Below, in pieces: positions 4,756 through 22,683 of a DNA stretch of 25,991 bases. The DNA lies in the IMG/VR virus record IMGVR_UViG_2913137851_000001; one strand, 5' to 3'. The position numbers were made by a program, and so were the translations under genes. Within the stretch, counting starts at the first letter, position 1. Each line of letters begins with the position of its first letter. Below the pieces are notes generated by a model. That model saw only the letters and a program-made list of their open reading frames with translations, ran no database searches and was not told where the DNA came from. The stretch is from a virus. Lineage: Duplodnaviria; Heunggongvirae; Uroviricota; Caudoviricetes.

Positions 4756-4808
4756 GGGCGGCAGAGCAGTCACGGAGTAAAACTGATACCGCCAAACGTC
4801 ACCAGAAA
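4756..4808 (-). ncRNA. dicF: DicF small regulatory RNA
   Basis: Reverse complement of 4756-4808 reads TTTCTGGTGACGTTTGGCGGTATCAGTTTTACTCCGTGACTGCTCTGCCGCCC, matching recalled 53-nt DicF. It ends in a GC-rich stem followed by TTTTT (the + strand AAAAA at 4751-4755). Sits between ydfC and dicB as in K-12. Confidence 0.85.
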
Positions 4809-8075: not shown

Positions 8076-8909
8076 TCAGTTAGTAACGTCGGAATCTTCA
8101 TTCTCAGAATGACCCTTTCTCCAGCCCGCTGCAAATTCAGACGGTGTCTGATAATTCAGCGTGGAGTGCGGGCGGCATTCGTTATAATCCTGCCGCCAGT
8201 CATTAATAATTTTCCTGGCATGAACGATATCGCTGAACCAGTGCTCATTCAAACATTCATCGCGAAATCGTCCGTTAAAGCTCTCAATAAATCCGTTCTG
8301 CGTTGGCTTGCCCGGCTGGATTAAGCGCAACTCAACACCATGCTCAAAGGCCCATTGATCCAGTGCACGGCAAGTGAACTCCGGCCCCTGGTCAGTTCTT
8401 ATCGTCGCCGGATAGCCTCGAAACAGTGCAATGCTGTCCAGAATACGCGTGACCTGAACGCCTGAAATCCCAAAGGCAACAGTGACCGTCAGGCATTCCT
8501 TTGTGAAATCATCGACGCAGGTAAGACACTTGATCCTGCGACCGGTGGAAAGTGCGTCCATGACGAAATCCATCGACCAGGTCAGATTGGGCGCCGCCGG
8601 ACGGAGCAGCGGCAGACGTTCTGTTGCCAGCCCTTTACGACGTCTTCTGCGTTTTACGCCCAGGCCACTGAGGTGATAAAGCCGGTACACGCGCTTATGA
8701 TTAACATGAAGCCCTTCACGGCGCAGCAACTGCCAAATACGACGGTAGCCAAAACGCCTGCGCTCCAGTGCCAGCTCAGTGATGCGCCCTGATAAATGCG
8801 CATCAGCAGCCGGACGGTGAGCCTCATAGCGGCAGGTCGACAGGGATAAACCTGTAAGCCTGCAGGCACGACGTTGCGACAGACCGGTCGCATCACACAT
8901 CAACATCAC
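8076..8909 (-). CDS. IS3-family transposase OrfB (DDE integrase core)
   Basis: 277-aa ORF with a DDE/rve-like region (D ... D ... E with K/R, e.g. [19 protein letters not shown]). In the -1 frame relative to orfA. Confidence 0.8.
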
Positions 8910-8932
8910 GGCTTCCCGCTTCTGGTCTGTCG

Positions 8933-9196
8933 TCAGTACTTTCGCCCAAGAGCCACCTGAAGCGCCTCTTTATCCAGCATGGCTTCGGCAAGCAGCTTCT
9001 TGAGTCTGGTGTTCTCTTCCTCAAGCGACTTCAGGCGCTTAACTTCAGGCACCTCCATACCGCCATACTTCTTACGCCAGGTGTAAAACGTGGCATCGGA
9101 AATGGCATGCTTGCGGCAGAGTTCACGGGCGGGTACCCCAGCTTCGGCTTCGCGGAGAATACTGATGATCTGTTCGTCGGAAAAACGCTTCTTCAT
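8933..9196 (-). CDS. IS3-family transposase OrfA (HTH)
   Basis: 87 aa, [46 protein letters not shown]..., the typical IS3/IS407-type OrfA with HTH and leucine zipper. Confidence 0.8.
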
Positions 9197-13377: not shown

Positions 13378-13656
13378 ATGGCACGCAACGCAAAATATTA
13401 CAATTCTGATAATTCGCCCGTTCTTGCCTGCACGCACGGGCGGTATTCTCACGCATTCAAGTCTGAATGGTTCCAGCACCCTCCATGCACTGCAGAACAG
13501 GCCGAATGGCTGATTCATTCTTACCGCAGGCGCGGGTTCGAGGTTAAGAAAGCTCTCAGTCTCGACTATCGGCACTGGATAATCTCTGTCAGGCTGCCTT
13601 ATTCCGAACGCCCACCACGTGCGTCCCGCACTTTCCAGCAACGGATCTGGAGGTAA
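13378..13656 (+). CDS. Hypothetical 92-aa protein, translationally coupled to ydfU
   Basis: GGAGA SD then ATG at 13378. Its last codons (..GGAGGTAA) supply the SD for the ydfU GTG start 1 nt downstream. Product contains Cys/His residues (CTHGRYSH ... HPPC). Confidence 0.55.
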   Translation: MARNAKYYNSDNSPVLACTHGRYSHAFKSEWFQHPPCTAEQAEWLIHSYRRRGFEVKKALSLDYRHWIISVRLPYSERPPRASRTFQQRIWR

Positions 13657-13657
13657 C

Positions 13658-14707
13658 GTGCGGGTATTACTTAGACCTGTTCTGGTGCCTGAGCTTGGGC
13701 TGGTGGTCCTTAAGCCGGGCCGTGAATCCATACAGATATTTCATAATCCTCGAGTGCTGGTGGAACCGGAACCAAAAAGCATGCGTAATCTGCCATCCGG
13801 AGTCGTTCCTGCCGTTCGCCAGCCGCTGGCGGAAGACAAAACATTGCTGCCGTTTTTTAGTAACGAACGGGTGATTCGTGCTGCTGGCGGCGTTGGCGCA
13901 TTGTCCGACTGGCTATTACGTCATGTTACATCCTGCCAGTGGCCTAATGGCGATTACCATCACACTGAAACAGTCATTCACCGTTATGGTACCGGCGCAA
14001 TGGTGTTGTGCTGGCACTGCGACAACCAACTGCGTGACCAGACATCGGAATCACTGGAGCTGCTTGCTCAACAAAATCTGACAGCATGGGTGATTGACGT
14101 CATCCGTCACGCAATAAGCGGTACGCAGGAGCGGGAATTATCTTTGGCTGAATTATCCTGGTGGGCGGTCTGCAATCAGGTGGTGGATGCACTACCTGAG
14201 GCTGTATCGCGTCGTTCGCTGGGATTACCAGCGGAAAAAATCTGCTCGGTGTACCGCGAAAGCGACATCGTACCGGGAGAGCAGACCGCCACCAGCATAT
14301 TGAAACAACGCACAAAAAATCTTGCACCGTTGCCTTACGCCCACCAGCAACAAAAATCACCACAGGAAAAGACGGTGGTAAGCATCACCGTTGATCCAGA
14401 GTCTCCGGAATCTTTCATGAAGCTGCCTAAACGTCGCCGCTGGGTTAAGGAGAAATACACACGTTGGGTTAAGACACAGCCGTGTGCTTGCTGCGGTATG
14501 CCAGCCGACGATCCGCATCATCTGATTGGTCACGGGCAGGGCGGAATGGGAACAAAAGCACATGATCTCTTTGTGTTGCCTTTGTGCAGAAAGCATCACA
14601 ACGAGCTGCATACGGATACAGTGGCATTTGAAGATAAGTATGGCTCCCAACTGGAGCTGATATTTCGTTTTATCGATCGCGCGCTGACAATTGGCGTACT
14701 GGCGTAA
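13658..14707 (+). CDS. ydfU: YdfU (DUF968-type protein with C-terminal Cys/His-rich, HNH-like motif)
   Basis: 349 aa if started at GTG 13658 (GGAGG SD), matching the recalled K-12 length. C-terminus CACCGMPADDPHHLIGHGQGG ... CRKHHNELH. Confidence 0.7.
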   Translation: MRVLLRPVLVPELGLVVLKPGRESIQIFHNPRVLVEPEPKSMRNLPSGVVPAVRQPLAEDKTLLPFFSNERVIRAAGGVGALSDWLLRHVTSCQWPNGDYHHTETVIHRYGTGAMVLCWHCDNQLRDQTSESLELLAQQNLTAWVIDVIRHAISGTQERELSLAELSWWAVCNQVVDALPEAVSRRSLGLPAEKICSVYRESDIVPGEQTATSILKQRTKNLAPLPYAHQQQKSPQEKTVVSITVDPESPESFMKLPKRRRWVKEKYTRWVKTQPCACCGMPADDPHHLIGHGQGGMGTKAHDLFVLPLCRKHHNELHTDTVAFEDKYGSQLELIFRFIDRALTIGVLA

Positions 14708-14720
14708 GTGGAGAACGAGC

Positions 14721-15473
14721 ATGAACCTTGAAGCCTTACCAAAATATTACTCCCCAAAATCTCCAAAATTGAGCGATGACGCTCCAGCGACAGGCACCGG
14801 TTGTTTAACAATTACGGATGTAATGGCAGCGCAGGGGATGGTGCAGTCGAAAGCACCACTTGGGTTGGCCTTATTTCTGGCAAAAGTTGGTGTTCAGGAC
14901 CCTCAGTTTGCGATTGAAGGCCTGCTAAATTACGCGATGGCACTGGATAACCCGACATTGAACAAATTGAGTGAAGAAATCCGGTTACAGATTATTCCTT
15001 ACCTCGTGAGTTTTGCCTTTGCTGATTACTCCAGGTCTGCGGCAAGTAAGGCTCGCTGTGAGCATTGTTCAGGTACGGGATTTTATAATGTATTGCGCGA
15101 AGTGGTGAAACACTACAGACGCGGGGAATCTGTAATCAAGGAAGAATGGGTGAAGGAACTATGTCAGCATTGCCATGGTAAGGGCGAAGCCAGCACAGCG
15201 TGCAGAGGGTGTAAGGGTAAAGGGATTGTTCTGGATGAAAAAAGAACCCGGTTTCATGGCGTACCGGTATATAAGATTTGTGGGCGTTGTAATGGAAACC
15301 GGTTTAGTCGTTTACCGACCACGCTGGCACGACGTCATGTCCAGAAGCTGGTACCAGACCTGACCGATTATCAGTGGTATAAGGGGTATGCGGACGTCAT
15401 TGGTAAACTGGTAACAAAGTGCTGGCAGGAAGAAGCATACGCGGAAGCGCAATTGAGGAAGGTGACGAGATAA
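14721..15473 (+). CDS. quuQ: Q-like late-gene antiterminator
   Basis: 250 aa from ATG 14721 (GGAGAA SD). Lies immediately upstream of a late-type promoter and short terminated leader. Contains four CxxCxGxG repeats. Confidence 0.7.
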   Translation: MNLEALPKYYSPKSPKLSDDAPATGTGCLTITDVMAAQGMVQSKAPLGLALFLAKVGVQDPQFAIEGLLNYAMALDNPTLNKLSEEIRLQIIPYLVSFAFADYSRSAASKARCEHCSGTGFYNVLREVVKHYRRGESVIKEEWVKELCQHCHGKGEASTACRGCKGKGIVLDEKRTRFHGVPVYKICGRCNGNRFSRLPTTLARRHVQKLVPDLTDYQWYKGYADVIGKLVTKCWQEEAYAEAQLRKVTR

Positions 15474-15504
15474 ATGATTTTTGCTGAAGATGGCGACATG
15501 ATGT

Positions 15505-15533
15505 TTGCATTTTTCAAAAAATATGGATAAAAT
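15505..15533 (+). promoter_or_regulatory. PR'-like late promoter (probable Q-utilisation region)
   Basis: TTGCAT-17 bp-TAAAAT just downstream of the Q gene, followed about 50 nt later by a strong terminator, the lambdoid PR'/tR' arrangement. Confidence 0.55.
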
Positions 15534-15578
15534 TTTTTCAACGATGGGCTTTGTATACCCGACGTTAAGAAAAAGTAG

Positions 15579-15609
15579 AAAACCCGCTGATGAGCGGGTT
15601 TTGTGCTTT
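15579..15609 (+). terminator. Rho-independent terminator (tR'-like)
   Basis: AAAACCCGC-TGATG-AGCGGGTTTT hairpin followed by a T-rich tract. Confidence 0.75.
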
Positions 15610-15894
15610 AAATGGGGCAATGGTAATGTTGAATCTCATCCCGGGACTCATGTCTGTTAACTTATTATTTAGCTGGTGACTTGGTTATTTGCCTGATGTT
15701 TAAAATGTTTTCTTCCAGTACAATGTCCCTAAACACAATGAGTCTGCTTATTATATTATTAGCAGAGCTATTACGGCCAAAGTACAGCATAAGCTTTTAA
15801 AGCCAATCAACCAGTCATCAAGACAGACGGGGTTATTCATAAAAACTCTCCATGTGTGATCCGATGGGGCCTGAAATTAAAGCTTTAATATAGC

Positions 15895-16107
15895 TCATGA
15901 AAGGTAAACATTGGCAGCTGAAGGGCCACGCAGACCATTTATCCGGCAAAATTCCACGCGTAATCCGGTGGTAATTTCTTCTGCATCGCGGAGATTGAGC
16001 GCTGAAACATGAAGCTGGACATCGATACGACCATCGGATGGGGTGATAAGACCCTTGCCGCTTTTGCCGTCAAAGGTTTTGACAATTCCTGTCATTTTAC
16101 GGGACAA
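15895..16107 (-). CDS. cspF: CspA-family cold-shock-domain protein (CspF-like)
   Basis: 70-aa product [26 protein letters not shown]... with cold-shock-domain motifs. Divergent from cspB. Confidence 0.85.
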
Positions 16108-16407
16108 AAAAATTCCTTAATACTGATAACTTGGCGCACTATACACACGTTCCTGAAGAAAGCTATAGTTTTTTGATGGGGTTGAAGATGGCTGGATGTC
16201 TAAAATAAACATTGCTTCATATGTTCAACTATGCGTTAATGATTGCGTCGGTTTGAAGAACAGACGATATACGAAGTAGTTTACTAAAGCAGTTCTCATT
16301 TCAGGTGTTATTCACTTATTCCTTCTTTGAGTCTCTCCAATTAAGTACGAAGTCGTTTCTGTTATGCAAACCATTTATGCCGAAAGGCTCAAGTTAAGGA
16401 ATGTAGA

Positions 16408-16623
16408 ATGTCAAATAAAATGACTGGTTTAGTAAAATGGTTTAACGCTGATAAAGGTTTCGGCTTTATTTCTCCTGTTGATGGTAGTAAAGATGTGTTT
16501 GTGCATTTTTCTGCGATTCAGAATGATAATTATCGAACCTTATTTGAAGGTCAAAAGGTTACCTTCTCTATAGAGAGTGGTGCTAAAGGTCCTGCAGCAG
16601 CAAATGTCATCATTACTGATTAA
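16408..16623 (+). CDS. cspB: Cold-shock protein CspB
   Basis: 71-aa product [71 protein letters not shown], the CspA family with RNP1/RNP2 motifs. Confidence 0.9.
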
Positions 16624-16903
16624 AATTCATCGCTCGTCTGTATACGATAACGAAGAAGGCTGATGCCTGAGTAGAGATACGGACAGAGTAGTGAATATTG
16701 GATCTCTTTAATAAAAAGTAAGGAGGTCCAATACATGAAACAATGGCTAGCATATTTGGCAAAATCTTAATCAGGAAAAGTATGCTAACCATTGTGGTGA
16801 AGTGCAGGTTTGCTGCATGAATAGTTTTACAGCAGAAGCTAACTGCTGGCATGGCAAAACAAAGTGCGTAAGTGGATGACTCCCACAAAAAGCACCACAA
16901 TCT

Positions 16904-17157: not shown

Positions 17158-17376
17158 AGGCTTTTCCTGTATAAATGGCCGTATACAGTACACTAAATAT
17201 GAAAACATTTCTCGTATTATTATTTTATATATGACTTTCTTTCAAAATAATTACCCACATTTTTAATGTGTATGTTTTTTTAGCGCCGTTGAGAACAACG
17301 TGTGCTGTCAAAACTACCCCGTAGACTCCGATCTTTTCAAACATATTGCACCATCCGTGTACATCGGGGTGAGGAT

Positions 17377-17592
17377 ATGAAATCAATGGATAAGTTAACA
17401 ACAGGTGTTGCCTATGGCACATCGGCGGGTAATGCTGGTTTCTGGGCATTGCAGTTACTCGATAAAGTAACTCCGTCACAGTGGGCTGCAATCGGTGTGC
17501 TGGGTAGCCTGGTTTTTGGCCTGCTGACGTATCTGACAAATCTTTATTTCAAGATTAAAGAAGACAGGCGTAAGGCTGCGAGAGGAGAGTAA
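17377..17592 (+). CDS. essQ: Class II holin / pinholin (S21-like) with dual-start motif
   Basis: 71 aa, [71 protein letters not shown]. Two TM segments. The Met-Lys-Ser-Met start gives potential holin and antiholin products. Closely resembles recalled phage 21 S. Confidence 0.85.
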
Positions 17593-17596
17593 TCCA

Positions 17597-17904
17597 ATGA
17601 CTCAAGACTATGAACTGGTTGTGAAAGGAGTCCGTAATTTTGAGAATAAAGTTACGGTAACTGTAGCCTTACAGGACAAAGAACGCTTTGACGGTGAAAT
17701 TTTTGACCTGGATGTCGCCATGGACCGTGTTGAAGGAGCTGCGCTGGAGTTTTATGAGGCAGCAGCCAGAAGGAGCGTCCGGCAAGTCTTCCTGGAAGTA
17801 GCAGAAAAATTGTCAGAAAAAGTTGAGTCTTATCTGCAGCATCAGTACTCCTTTAAGATTGAAAATCCTGCCAATAAGCACGAGCGTCCTCATCATAAAT
17901 ATCT

Positions 17905-17908
<4 letters not shown>
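17597..17908 (+). CDS. ydfR: YdfR (DUF1327-like) protein
   Basis: 103-aa ORF between holin and endolysin. Its stop overlaps the endolysin ATG (ATGA). Confidence 0.7.
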
Positions 17909-18932
<1,024 letters not shown>

Positions 18933-19182
18933 GGTAATATTAAATCGGAACATTTACATCGCGGAATGTAAAATTTAAATAAAAAGGACTCTTCCATGAG
19001 CCAAAATTCCTGAAATCTTAAGGGTAAGATAAAAGGTCTTAATCAGAATGACACGTTTTATTAATAAATAAAGCTATTCTTTCATTGCTGTGTTTTTCTT
19101 TACAAAAGTAATCCTTGCTATGGGTGGTTAATCATGCGTTAATGGTGTTCTGGTTTGTTACAAATTTATCTGAAGCAGTCAT

Positions 19183-19191
19183 TGTTATAAT
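19183..19191 (+). promoter_or_regulatory. Extended -10 promoter element upstream of cspI
   Basis: TGtTATAAT about 100 nt upstream of the cspI ATG. The -35 is weak. Transcription start was not determined. Confidence 0.4.
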
Positions 19192-19294
19192 TTTATTATT
19201 TGTACCTCTTGAGATTTCCTTGTTGGTTTTTCTCTCTGATATTTTTTTTCGGACCATTCTGCCCAAGGGCTAATTTCTTCAAAAGGTAATAATT

Positions 19295-19507
19295 ATGTCT
19301 AACAAAATGACTGGTTTAGTGAAATGGTTTAACCCTGAAAAAGGTTTTGGTTTCATCACGCCGAAAGATGGCAGCAAAGATGTGTTTGTCCATTTCTCAG
19401 CAATTCAGAGCAACGATTTCAAAACATTAACTGAGAATCAGGAAGTTGAATTTGGTATTGAGAACGGACCTAAAGGTCCTGCCGCTGTTCATGTAGTGGC
19501 GCTTTGA
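19295..19507 (+). CDS. cspI: Cold-shock protein CspI
   Basis: 70-aa product [82 protein letters not shown] as in cspA-type leaders. Confidence 0.9.
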
Positions 19508-19710
19508 GGTAGACAATATTACAAACCATATTCACTTTAGATGCCCGTGTTGTCATGGTTCCCAGTATAGAACATCATCTTTTGATGTTTCTGACATGAA
19601 TCCTTTCGGGGCAAAATGTATCTTTTGTAAATCAATGATGATTACATTTGATAATATTTCACAATACTTAAATGCCAGCCGTCTGTCGTTGGATTTAAAA
19701 AAGTGAAAAT

Positions 19711-22108: not shown

Positions 22109-22683
22109 TGGCATTCAGAATGAGTGAACAACCACGGACCATAAAAATTTATAATCTGCTGGCCGGAACTAATGAATTTATTGGTGAAGGTGATGCATAT
22201 ATTCCGCCTCATACAGGTCTGCCAGCAAACAGTACCGATATTGCACCGCCAGATATTCCGGCTGGCTTCGTGGCTGTTTTCAACAGTGATGAGTCATCGT
22301 GGCATCTCGTTGAAGATCATCGGGGTAAAACGGTTTATGACGTGGCTTCCGGCGACGCGTTATTTATTTCTGAACTCGGTCCGTTACCGGAAAATGTTAC
22401 CTGGTTATCGCCGGAAGGGGAGTTTCAGAAGTGGAACGGCACAGCCTGGGTGAAGGATACGGAAGCAGAAAAACTGTTCCGGATCCGGGAGGCGGAAGAA
22501 ACAAAAAACAACCTGATGCAGGTAGCCAGTGAGCATATTGCGCCGCTTCAGGATGCTGCAGATCTGGAAATTGCAACGGAGGAAGAAATCTCGTTGCTGG
22601 AAGCATGGAAAAAGTATCGGGTATTGCTGAACCGTGTTGATACGTCAACTGCACAGGATATTGAATGGCCAGCACTGCCGTAG
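22108..22683 (+). CDS. tfaQ: Tail-fibre assembly chaperone
   Basis: 191-aa ORF starting at the stop of the tail-fibre gene (ATAATGG overlap); typical Tfa N-terminus ([17 protein letters not shown]...). Confidence 0.8.

Follow-up and report, generated by a model that had tools for sequence, protein, structure and literature searches.

A probable lambda-like late-gene regulatory cassette around the four-motif Q protein of a Qin-type prophage

We analysed a 25,991-nucleotide stretch of viral DNA (IMG/VR record IMGVR_UViG_2913137851_000001; hereafter the window), focusing on the Q antiterminator gene ydfT/quuQ and on the promoter, pause element and terminator that lie immediately 3' of it. Coordinates are those of the window, and features are on the + strand unless stated otherwise. 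The 2.3 kb around Q are 100% identical to many Escherichia coli chromosomes, in which ydfU (DUF968), ydfT (antitermination protein), cspF and cspB are annotated, and at least 80% of this region is present in 1591 of 5426 complete genomes. This identity, together with a DicF small RNA (sRNA) on the - strand at 4756-4807 (an Rfam-type RNA match and a Qin prophage marker) and two cspA-type thermoregulators, identifies the window as a Qin-type lambdoid prophage of E. coli.

The Q protein and its cysteine motifs

The Q gene occupies positions 14721-15473 (stop codon 15471-15473) and encodes a protein of 250 residues, QuuQ, from an ATG at 14721 that is preceded by a GGAG sequence 8 nt upstream. A first-pass annotation of this DNA, made from the letters alone, had called the product a Q-like antiterminator, and the domain search bears this out: QuuQ matches PF03589 (Antiterm) with 181.3 bits against a cut-off of 26.7 (3.6e-54), and the N-terminal domain PF27659 is already precomputed on proteins identical to it. 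Among the closest known systems is phage lambda Q with its promoter PR', 6S RNA and terminator tR' (Q-lambda family, PF03589; structures PDB 4MO1 and 7UBJ-7UBN). The best match of QuuQ among solved structures is lambda Q itself (7ubm_Q, phmmer E=4.6e-36). The two proteins are homologous over their full length at ~33% identity, including the N-terminus, the C-terminal body and one zinc ribbon, and they align in two blocks: QuuQ 1-120 with lambda 1-125, and QuuQ 160-250 with lambda 117-207, the latter ungapped. QuuQ shows the fold of the Q-lambda family, a helical body with a helix-turn-helix (HTH) plus a zinc-ribbon arm. PF03589 is that family; phages 21 and 82 have Q proteins of two further families that are unrelated (PMC9388147). 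QuuQ is grouped with lambda Q and with phi80 Q (gp17, 269 residues, 36.5% identical to QuuQ, also of the Q-lambda family), and not with the phage 82 and 21 proteins that the first-pass annotation had proposed for comparison.

Residues 1-44 (14721-14852) align to lambda Q 1-44 without gaps and contain an invariant G39; in the free AlphaFold2 (AF2) model, residues 1-30 have predicted local distance difference test (pLDDT) values of 51-62, which fits disorder. In lambda, the N-terminal segment folds with NusA into a torus or nozzle in the RNA-exit channel (PMC9388147), and by analogy the QuuQ segment would refold with NusA in the same place. The C-terminal part of the helical body (15306-15470) was delimited from the lambda alignment and is modelled with helices 200-210 and 216-249 at pLDDT ~90. 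Its residues L245 and T249 correspond to lambda L202 and T206 and are conserved; the lambda counterpart of this region holds the HTH and the C-terminal helix. QuuQ carries R177 at the position of lambda E134, and in lambda the E134K substitution increases DNA binding (PMC9388147).

Four CxxCxGxG-like repeats had been noticed in the translation at first reading, and all four are located in Q: CEHCSGTG (motif 1, residues 113-120, 15057-15080), CQHCHGKG (motif 2, residues 148-155, 15162-15185), CRGCKGKG (motif 3, residues 161-168, 15201-15224) and CGRCNGNR (motif 4, residues 187-194, 15279-15302), the last of which ends in R in place of G. C161, C164, C187 and C190 align without gaps to the lambda zinc ligands C118, C121, C144 and C147 and are invariant in a 44-sequence alignment of homologues. 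The first lambda motif, CRDCHGTG (motif A), pairs with motif 1 when the alignment is read from the N-terminal side and with motif 3 when it is read from the C-terminal side. In this alignment QuuQ is, in effect, lambda Q plus ~43 residues that hold the tail of motif 1, a long hairpin and motif 2, so that it has two more CxxCxGxG motifs than lambda. The AF2 secondary structure places strands at 121-131 and 137-147, a self-contained hairpin between motifs 1 and 2. We therefore distinguish, from the alignment and the AF2 secondary structure, a predicted extra ribbon with no lambda Q counterpart (motif 1, the beta hairpin of residues 121-147, motif 2 and a 5-residue linker; 15057-15200) and a lambda-like zinc-ribbon arm (motif 3, strand-helix-strand, motif 4; 15201-15305).

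The cysteines persist in orthologues, where the first-pass annotation had said that their absence would count against it. All four CxxC pairs are found in 111 of 120 close homologues (63-100% identity), and the nine with fewer are all shorter than 250 residues (175-233 residues; fragments or internally deleted forms). Across the 44 aligned sequences all eight cysteines and the motif glycines are invariant, whereas the x positions vary. Among the homologues retrieved with lambda Q, forms of ~207 residues have two motifs and forms of 254-277 residues have four; the experimentally studied Q of phi80 is one of the long forms. Four motifs are present in 29 of 45 full-length-size representatives of 50%-identity clusters, a count that includes a variant CxCxGxG at motif position 3. 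The spacing from motif 2 to 3 (13 residues) and from motif 3 to 4 (25-26 residues; lambda A to B, 26) is essentially fixed across the family, while the distance between motifs 1 and 2 can be anything from 14 to 63 residues. These motif counts indicate that the four-motif state is the common one in the Q-lambda family and that lambda Q is reduced.

In lambda, four cysteines bind one zinc in the zinc ribbon or arm, which contacts positions 11-13 of the Q-binding element, sigma region 4 and the zinc-binding domain of RNA polymerase (PMC9388147). Because motifs 3 and 4, with the residues between them, correspond to this ribbon as one homologous unit, they should form a lambda-like zinc site, which leaves motifs 1 and 2 for a second. 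In the model, motifs 1 and 2 most likely clamp the base of the extra beta hairpin of variable length, and the likeliest arrangement of the four motifs is a tandem pair of zinc ribbons that together hold two zinc ions. We regard the tandem arrangement, as opposed to an interleaved one (1+4, 2+3), as quite probable, since motifs 3 and 4 are homologous to the single solved ribbon of lambda and the predicted hairpin lies between motifs 1 and 2. The matches in the structure databases include no solved structure of this presumed two-ribbon form.

The repeats had also been described as typical of the DnaJ zinc finger, and at the level of the motifs this holds. The profile PF00684 (DnaJ_CXXCXGXG), already listed on Q among the precomputed Pfam domains, scores 35.4 bits against a gathering threshold of 32.7, a marginal match. 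One could suppose from this that the cysteine region was grafted onto Q as a genuine central domain of the DnaJ type, in which the Zn1 and Zn2 sites interleave and which serves as a chaperone-like or protein-binding unit; one source indeed names a homologue (P0239) 'DnaJ-class molecular chaperone with C-terminal Zn finger domain', and there are weak NCBIfam DnaJ and anti-TRAP matches. The likeness does not extend beyond the motifs. The PF00684 match covers Q residues 148-193 on profile positions 1-50 of 65 only, in a shifted register that places Q motifs 2, 3 and 4 on DnaJ motifs 1, 2 and 3. Matches of the same kind below the threshold are given by lambda Q (23.1 bits, the A and B pair on profile positions 14-52) and by phi80 Q (24.0 bits), and the NCBIfam DnaJ models reach 15-23 bits on Q against cut-offs of 338-585. 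The Pfam search of Q returned no J domain, G/F region or DnaJ C-terminal domains, and DnaJ is absent among the listed fold matches. Zinc pairing in DnaJ is interleaved, motifs 1+4 and 2+3 (PDB 1EXK), whereas that of QuuQ is probably tandem, and the lambda Q ribbon, in contrast to the DnaJ domain, binds DNA and RNA polymerase. We find a grafted DnaJ domain hardly credible. The DnaJ likeness of Q is at the motif level only, and the four cysteine motifs are usual for the Q family and not a new chaperone-like feature.

Promoter, pause element and terminator 3' of Q

A PR'-like late promoter follows the Q gene, with a -35 hexamer TTGCAT at 15505-15510, a 17-nt spacer at 15511-15527 and a -10 hexamer TAAAAT at 15528-15533. 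The same TTGCAT-17-TAAAAT had been picked out in the first-pass annotation, and it aligns to lambda PR' and to phi80 pR'; the promoter scan reports an overlapping TTTGCA-18-TAAAAT. From the -35 hexamer onwards, the Qin sequence reads TTGCAT / TTTTCAAAAAATATGGA / TAAAAT / TTTTTC / AACGATGGG and that of lambda TTGACT / TATTGAATAAAATTGGG / TAAATT / TGACTC / AACGATGGG. The two loci share a -35 hexamer, a 17-nt spacer, a -10 hexamer, a 6-nt gap before AACGATGGG and then an intrinsic terminator. The annotated pR' of phi80 is TTGCAT-17-TAGATT, with a spacer that holds the annotated Q site, then the -10-like element TAACGC and a terminator ~50 nt downstream; its -35 hexamer is identical to that of Qin and the region is organised alike.

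The 17-nt spacer presumably contains the Q-binding element. Its first 13 nt (TTTTCAAAAAAT) do not vary among the phages that carry this Q and are unlike those of both lambda and phi80; phi80 has TCGCGGA at its Q site, against TTTCAAA at the presumed one of Qin. Past the -10 hexamer lies a sigma-dependent pause element, AACGAT (15540-15545, presumed +1 to +6), within a conserved initial transcribed region AACGATGGGCTTTGT (15540-15556). It was recognised by its identity with lambda and had escaped the first-pass annotation: AACGATGGG is the same in Qin and lambda and begins 6 nt past the -10 hexamer in both, AACGAT being followed by the same GGG, whereas phi80 has TAACGC. By analogy with lambda, transcription would start at ~15540 and pause near +16/+17.

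A tR'-like intrinsic terminator was found by the terminator scan and by folding at 15579-15609, composed of a hairpin at 15579-15602 (AAAACCCGCTGATGAGCGGGTTTT) and GTGCTTT up to 15609. The 41-nt hairpin segment folds with -23.2 kcal/mol (z=-7.05) and the whole 73-nt leader (15540-15612) with -30.4 kcal/mol (z=-6.1). The short leader and strong terminator of the first-pass annotation stand. Without Q, termination near 15604-15609 would give a leader RNA of ~65 nt, compared with 194 in lambda. No Rfam family matches the PR' leader. Lambda, phi80 and other phages are known to make short RNAs from PR', and the StxS sRNA of Stx phages is a short RNA terminated after PR' with a regulatory role (PMC7547250). 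As with lambda 6S RNA and StxS, a constitutive late promoter with a close terminator would give a short, stable-looking RNA in lysogens; the Qin leader sequence is unrelated to StxS.

An 18-codon open reading frame (ORF; MIFAEDGDMMFAFFKKYG) at 15474-15530 begins directly after the Q stop (TAAATG), and its own stop is the TAA within the -10 hexamer. A comparable ORF of 11 codons (MIATDGNILTA) follows Q in lambda (locus L001, ~815-850), with an in-frame 3-nt indel difference, and sequence conservation between lambda and Qin is also seen in the DNA 5' of the -35 hexamer (GATGGCGACAT). This ORF and the conserved DNA could reflect a peptide, an upstream promoter element or chance.

A probable lambda-like late switch

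We read the locus as the late-gene regulatory cassette of a Qin-type lambdoid prophage that works like that of phage lambda, with a Q protein that has two tandem zinc ribbons, and assign this reading a probability of about 0.85. Q lies just 5' of a late promoter, a pause element and a terminator and ahead of the lysis genes, as is characteristic of the Q-lambda family. By homology to lambda (PMC9388147), RNA polymerase would start at the PR'-like promoter at ~15540 and pause after ~16 nt, because region 2 of sigma-70 would bind once more, now to the -10-like AACGAT of the non-template strand. In the absence of Q, transcription would end at the hairpin and U run (15579-15609), leaving the ~65-nt leader. 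With Q, the HTH body and zinc-ribbon arm would occupy the element flanked by the two promoter hexamers and touch the paused complex, and the N-terminal 44 residues together with NusA would form a nozzle in the RNA-exit channel and so keep the hairpin from forming. The modified polymerase would then read through the terminator, antisense across ynfS/cspF, through cspB and into the holin, lysozyme and Rz genes. That QuuQ binds a Q-binding element and confers NusA-stimulated resistance to terminators is what we infer from lambda (PMC9388147).

Conservation of the DNA 3' of Q is consistent with this reading. A 142-bp region 3' of Q is present in 35 phage records, and we aligned seven copies (Qin, a Stx2c phage, SfV, Ayreon, Tritos, 118970_sal3 and SKA5). 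The alignment shows no change in the -35 hexamer, in the first 13 nt of the spacer, at A2 and T6 of the -10 hexamer or in AACGATGGGCTTTGT; the 6 nt that separate the -10 hexamer from the pause element do vary. The hairpin and T run occupy the same position in all seven copies, including sal3 and SKA5, which have another stem and loop (CCUCGC-UUCG-GCGGGG) that still folds. The similarity between Qin and the Stx2c phage stops just after the T run of the terminator, and the genes beyond it differ: a lipoprotein-like ORF and a DNA methylase in Stx2c and Ayreon; orf47 and a methyltransferase in SfV; first a short hypothetical ORF in sal3 and SKA5, with holin and lysin within a few hundred bases; and cspB in Tritos, PhiR42_1 and Qin. 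Because the promoter, pause element and terminator are kept in all copies while the downstream genes differ, they form a module inherited with Q. The first-pass annotation had described the promoter, leader and terminator as the classic arrangement on which Q acts, and the pause element and the linkage of module and Q in the seven copies agree with that description.

Several observations weigh against the lambda-like reading. The consensus scan found 10 promoter-like sites against 7.8 expected, so that by consensus alone the promoter is not above chance; its call carries weight because it is homologous to lambda PR' and conserved among the copies. The flap-tip-helix contact residues of lambda Q (C53, H56 and L58) are not conserved in QuuQ, and we found no experiment on QuuQ or its promoter in the literature consulted. 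A pairing of motifs 2 and 3, whose spacing of 13 is near that of the adjacent pair in anti-TRAP, is sterically conceivable. Just 5' of the pause element, lambda has a -35-like TTGACT that docks the repositioned sigma region 4 (PMC9388147); this element is absent here, with TTTTTC in Qin and TTTCCC/TCTCCT in other copies, and loading may for that reason differ in detail from lambda.

The last such point concerns the hairpin, which is terminator-like on the - strand as well: it is followed there by CTACTTTTTC, is the top terminator-like match of the scan and folds with z=-7.0. Since cspF and ynfS are both transcribed toward it, the hairpin might be the terminator of a leftward cspF-ynfS transcript that lies after a promoter-like site by coincidence. 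We consider this highly improbable and rejected the reading that the hairpin is not tR', because SfV, Ayreon, Stx2c phages, SKA5 and sal3 all lack cspF/ynfS there and yet keep a hairpin and T run behind the same promoter and pause element. These copies also have longer T runs on the + strand and no upstream A tract, and a rightward terminator is annotated in SfV and Ayreon. In Qin, where an A tract flanks the hairpin, the tR'-like terminator probably also ends the leftward cspF-ynfS transcript and so has a dual, bidirectional role.

The cassette might also be a decayed relic, with Q or PR' no longer functional in a cryptic prophage and the conservation due to recent common descent. Qin in E. 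coli K-12 is a defective prophage, the window contains insertion sequence (IS)-related DNA, including an IS1222-type ribosomal frameshift element of an IS3-family insertion (8849-8966, - strand, RNA match; a Qin/IS insertion marker), and the close copies are 79-100% identical, so that part of the conservation is shared ancestry. We think decay unlikely. The Q ORF is intact, and the complete 48.7-kb phage PhiR42_1 carries an identical one as well as the same gene order, relBE-ydfU-Q-cspF-cspB-holin-lysozyme-Rz. The cysteines and glycines never change, while the residues next to them diverge to as little as 63% identity. Variation in the regulatory DNA is concentrated between the functional elements, and one lineage swapped the terminator stem and kept the hairpin.

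The locus is, on the lambda-like reading, an ordinary late-gene switch; the earlier observation is confirmed and its interpretation supported. Existing annotation already names the gene a Q antiterminator, and promoters and terminators have been marked in relatives. Mildly fresh are the identity of the pause element with that of lambda, the linkage of module and Q across phages with different cargo, and the presumed two-ribbon form as typical of the family. Beyond correct annotation the meaning is small: it is now settled which parts make up the late switch of Qin, namely the start region, pause element, terminator and cargo. Stx2c-converting phages (locus L002, 3501-4400) have a Q that is 94% identical and the same PR', pause element and terminator. 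Late transcription in these phages, and hence stx2c expression, is expected to depend on a two-ribbon protein of the Q-lambda family. Most Q-lambda members, among them the Stx2c-phage Q on which toxin expression depends, carry a presumed second zinc ribbon that no solved structure contains. Lambda may therefore not fully represent the way in which the majority of the family is loaded onto RNA polymerase. A bolder proposal, which we hold to be rather unlikely, is that the eight-cysteine, two-ribbon form is the standard Q-lambda architecture and lambda Q, the only member with solved structures, a reduced outlier; that the extra ribbon contacts the loading complex in a way that no current structure shows, one possibility being that it replaces the lambda-like arm at the zinc-binding domain of RNA polymerase, with DNA and sigma region 4 left to the arm, and so makes up for the missing -35-like element; and, separately, that the conserved ~65-nt PR' leader acts in trans as an sRNA in lysogens, like StxS.

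Neighbouring genes and cargo

Upstream of Q lies ydfU (13619-14707), a DUF968 gene (PF06147, 2.9e-76) with a C-terminal HNH-like region (PF16784, 26.2 bits and just under the threshold of 26.6). All the phages that we examined (SfV, Ayreon, Tritos, sal3, SKA5 and Stx2c) have it directly 5' of a Q gene of this type, and the ydfU-Q pair travels together. Elsewhere in the window, an IS009 RNA match at 22451-22649 is a further Qin/IS insertion marker.

The first genes downstream are, as the first-pass annotation had remarked, the divergent cspF/cspB pair rather than lysis genes. cspF (15895-16107, - strand; ORF and annotation) and ynfS (15751-15840, - strand; translation), which lies 3' of it on the same strand and encodes a 29-residue protein, form inserted cargo (15751-16107) that faces the hairpin (15602-15579 in that direction). 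YnfS is a validated small protein in E. coli K-12 (PMC6001520). This cargo is missing from the SfV, Stx2c, SKA5 and sal3 copies of the region. cspB (coding sequence 16408-16623; ORF and annotation) is cargo in the orientation of the late operon, and a cspA-type 5' thermoregulator match spans it (16247-16639; Rfam RF01766, 158.8 bits).

The lysis cassette follows at 17302-18932 with a holin, a DUF1327 protein, a lysozyme and an Rz-like gene (from ORFs and the Pfam matches phage P21 holin S, DUF1327 and Phage_lysozyme), in the same gene order as in the intact phage PhiR42_1. It is the presumed target of Q-modified transcription; in phi80, by comparison, the lysis genes follow without csp cargo. 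A second cspA thermoregulator match (19149-19534, 112.8 bits) covers another cold-shock gene 3' of the lysis genes, and the lysis cassette is flanked on both sides by cold-shock genes.
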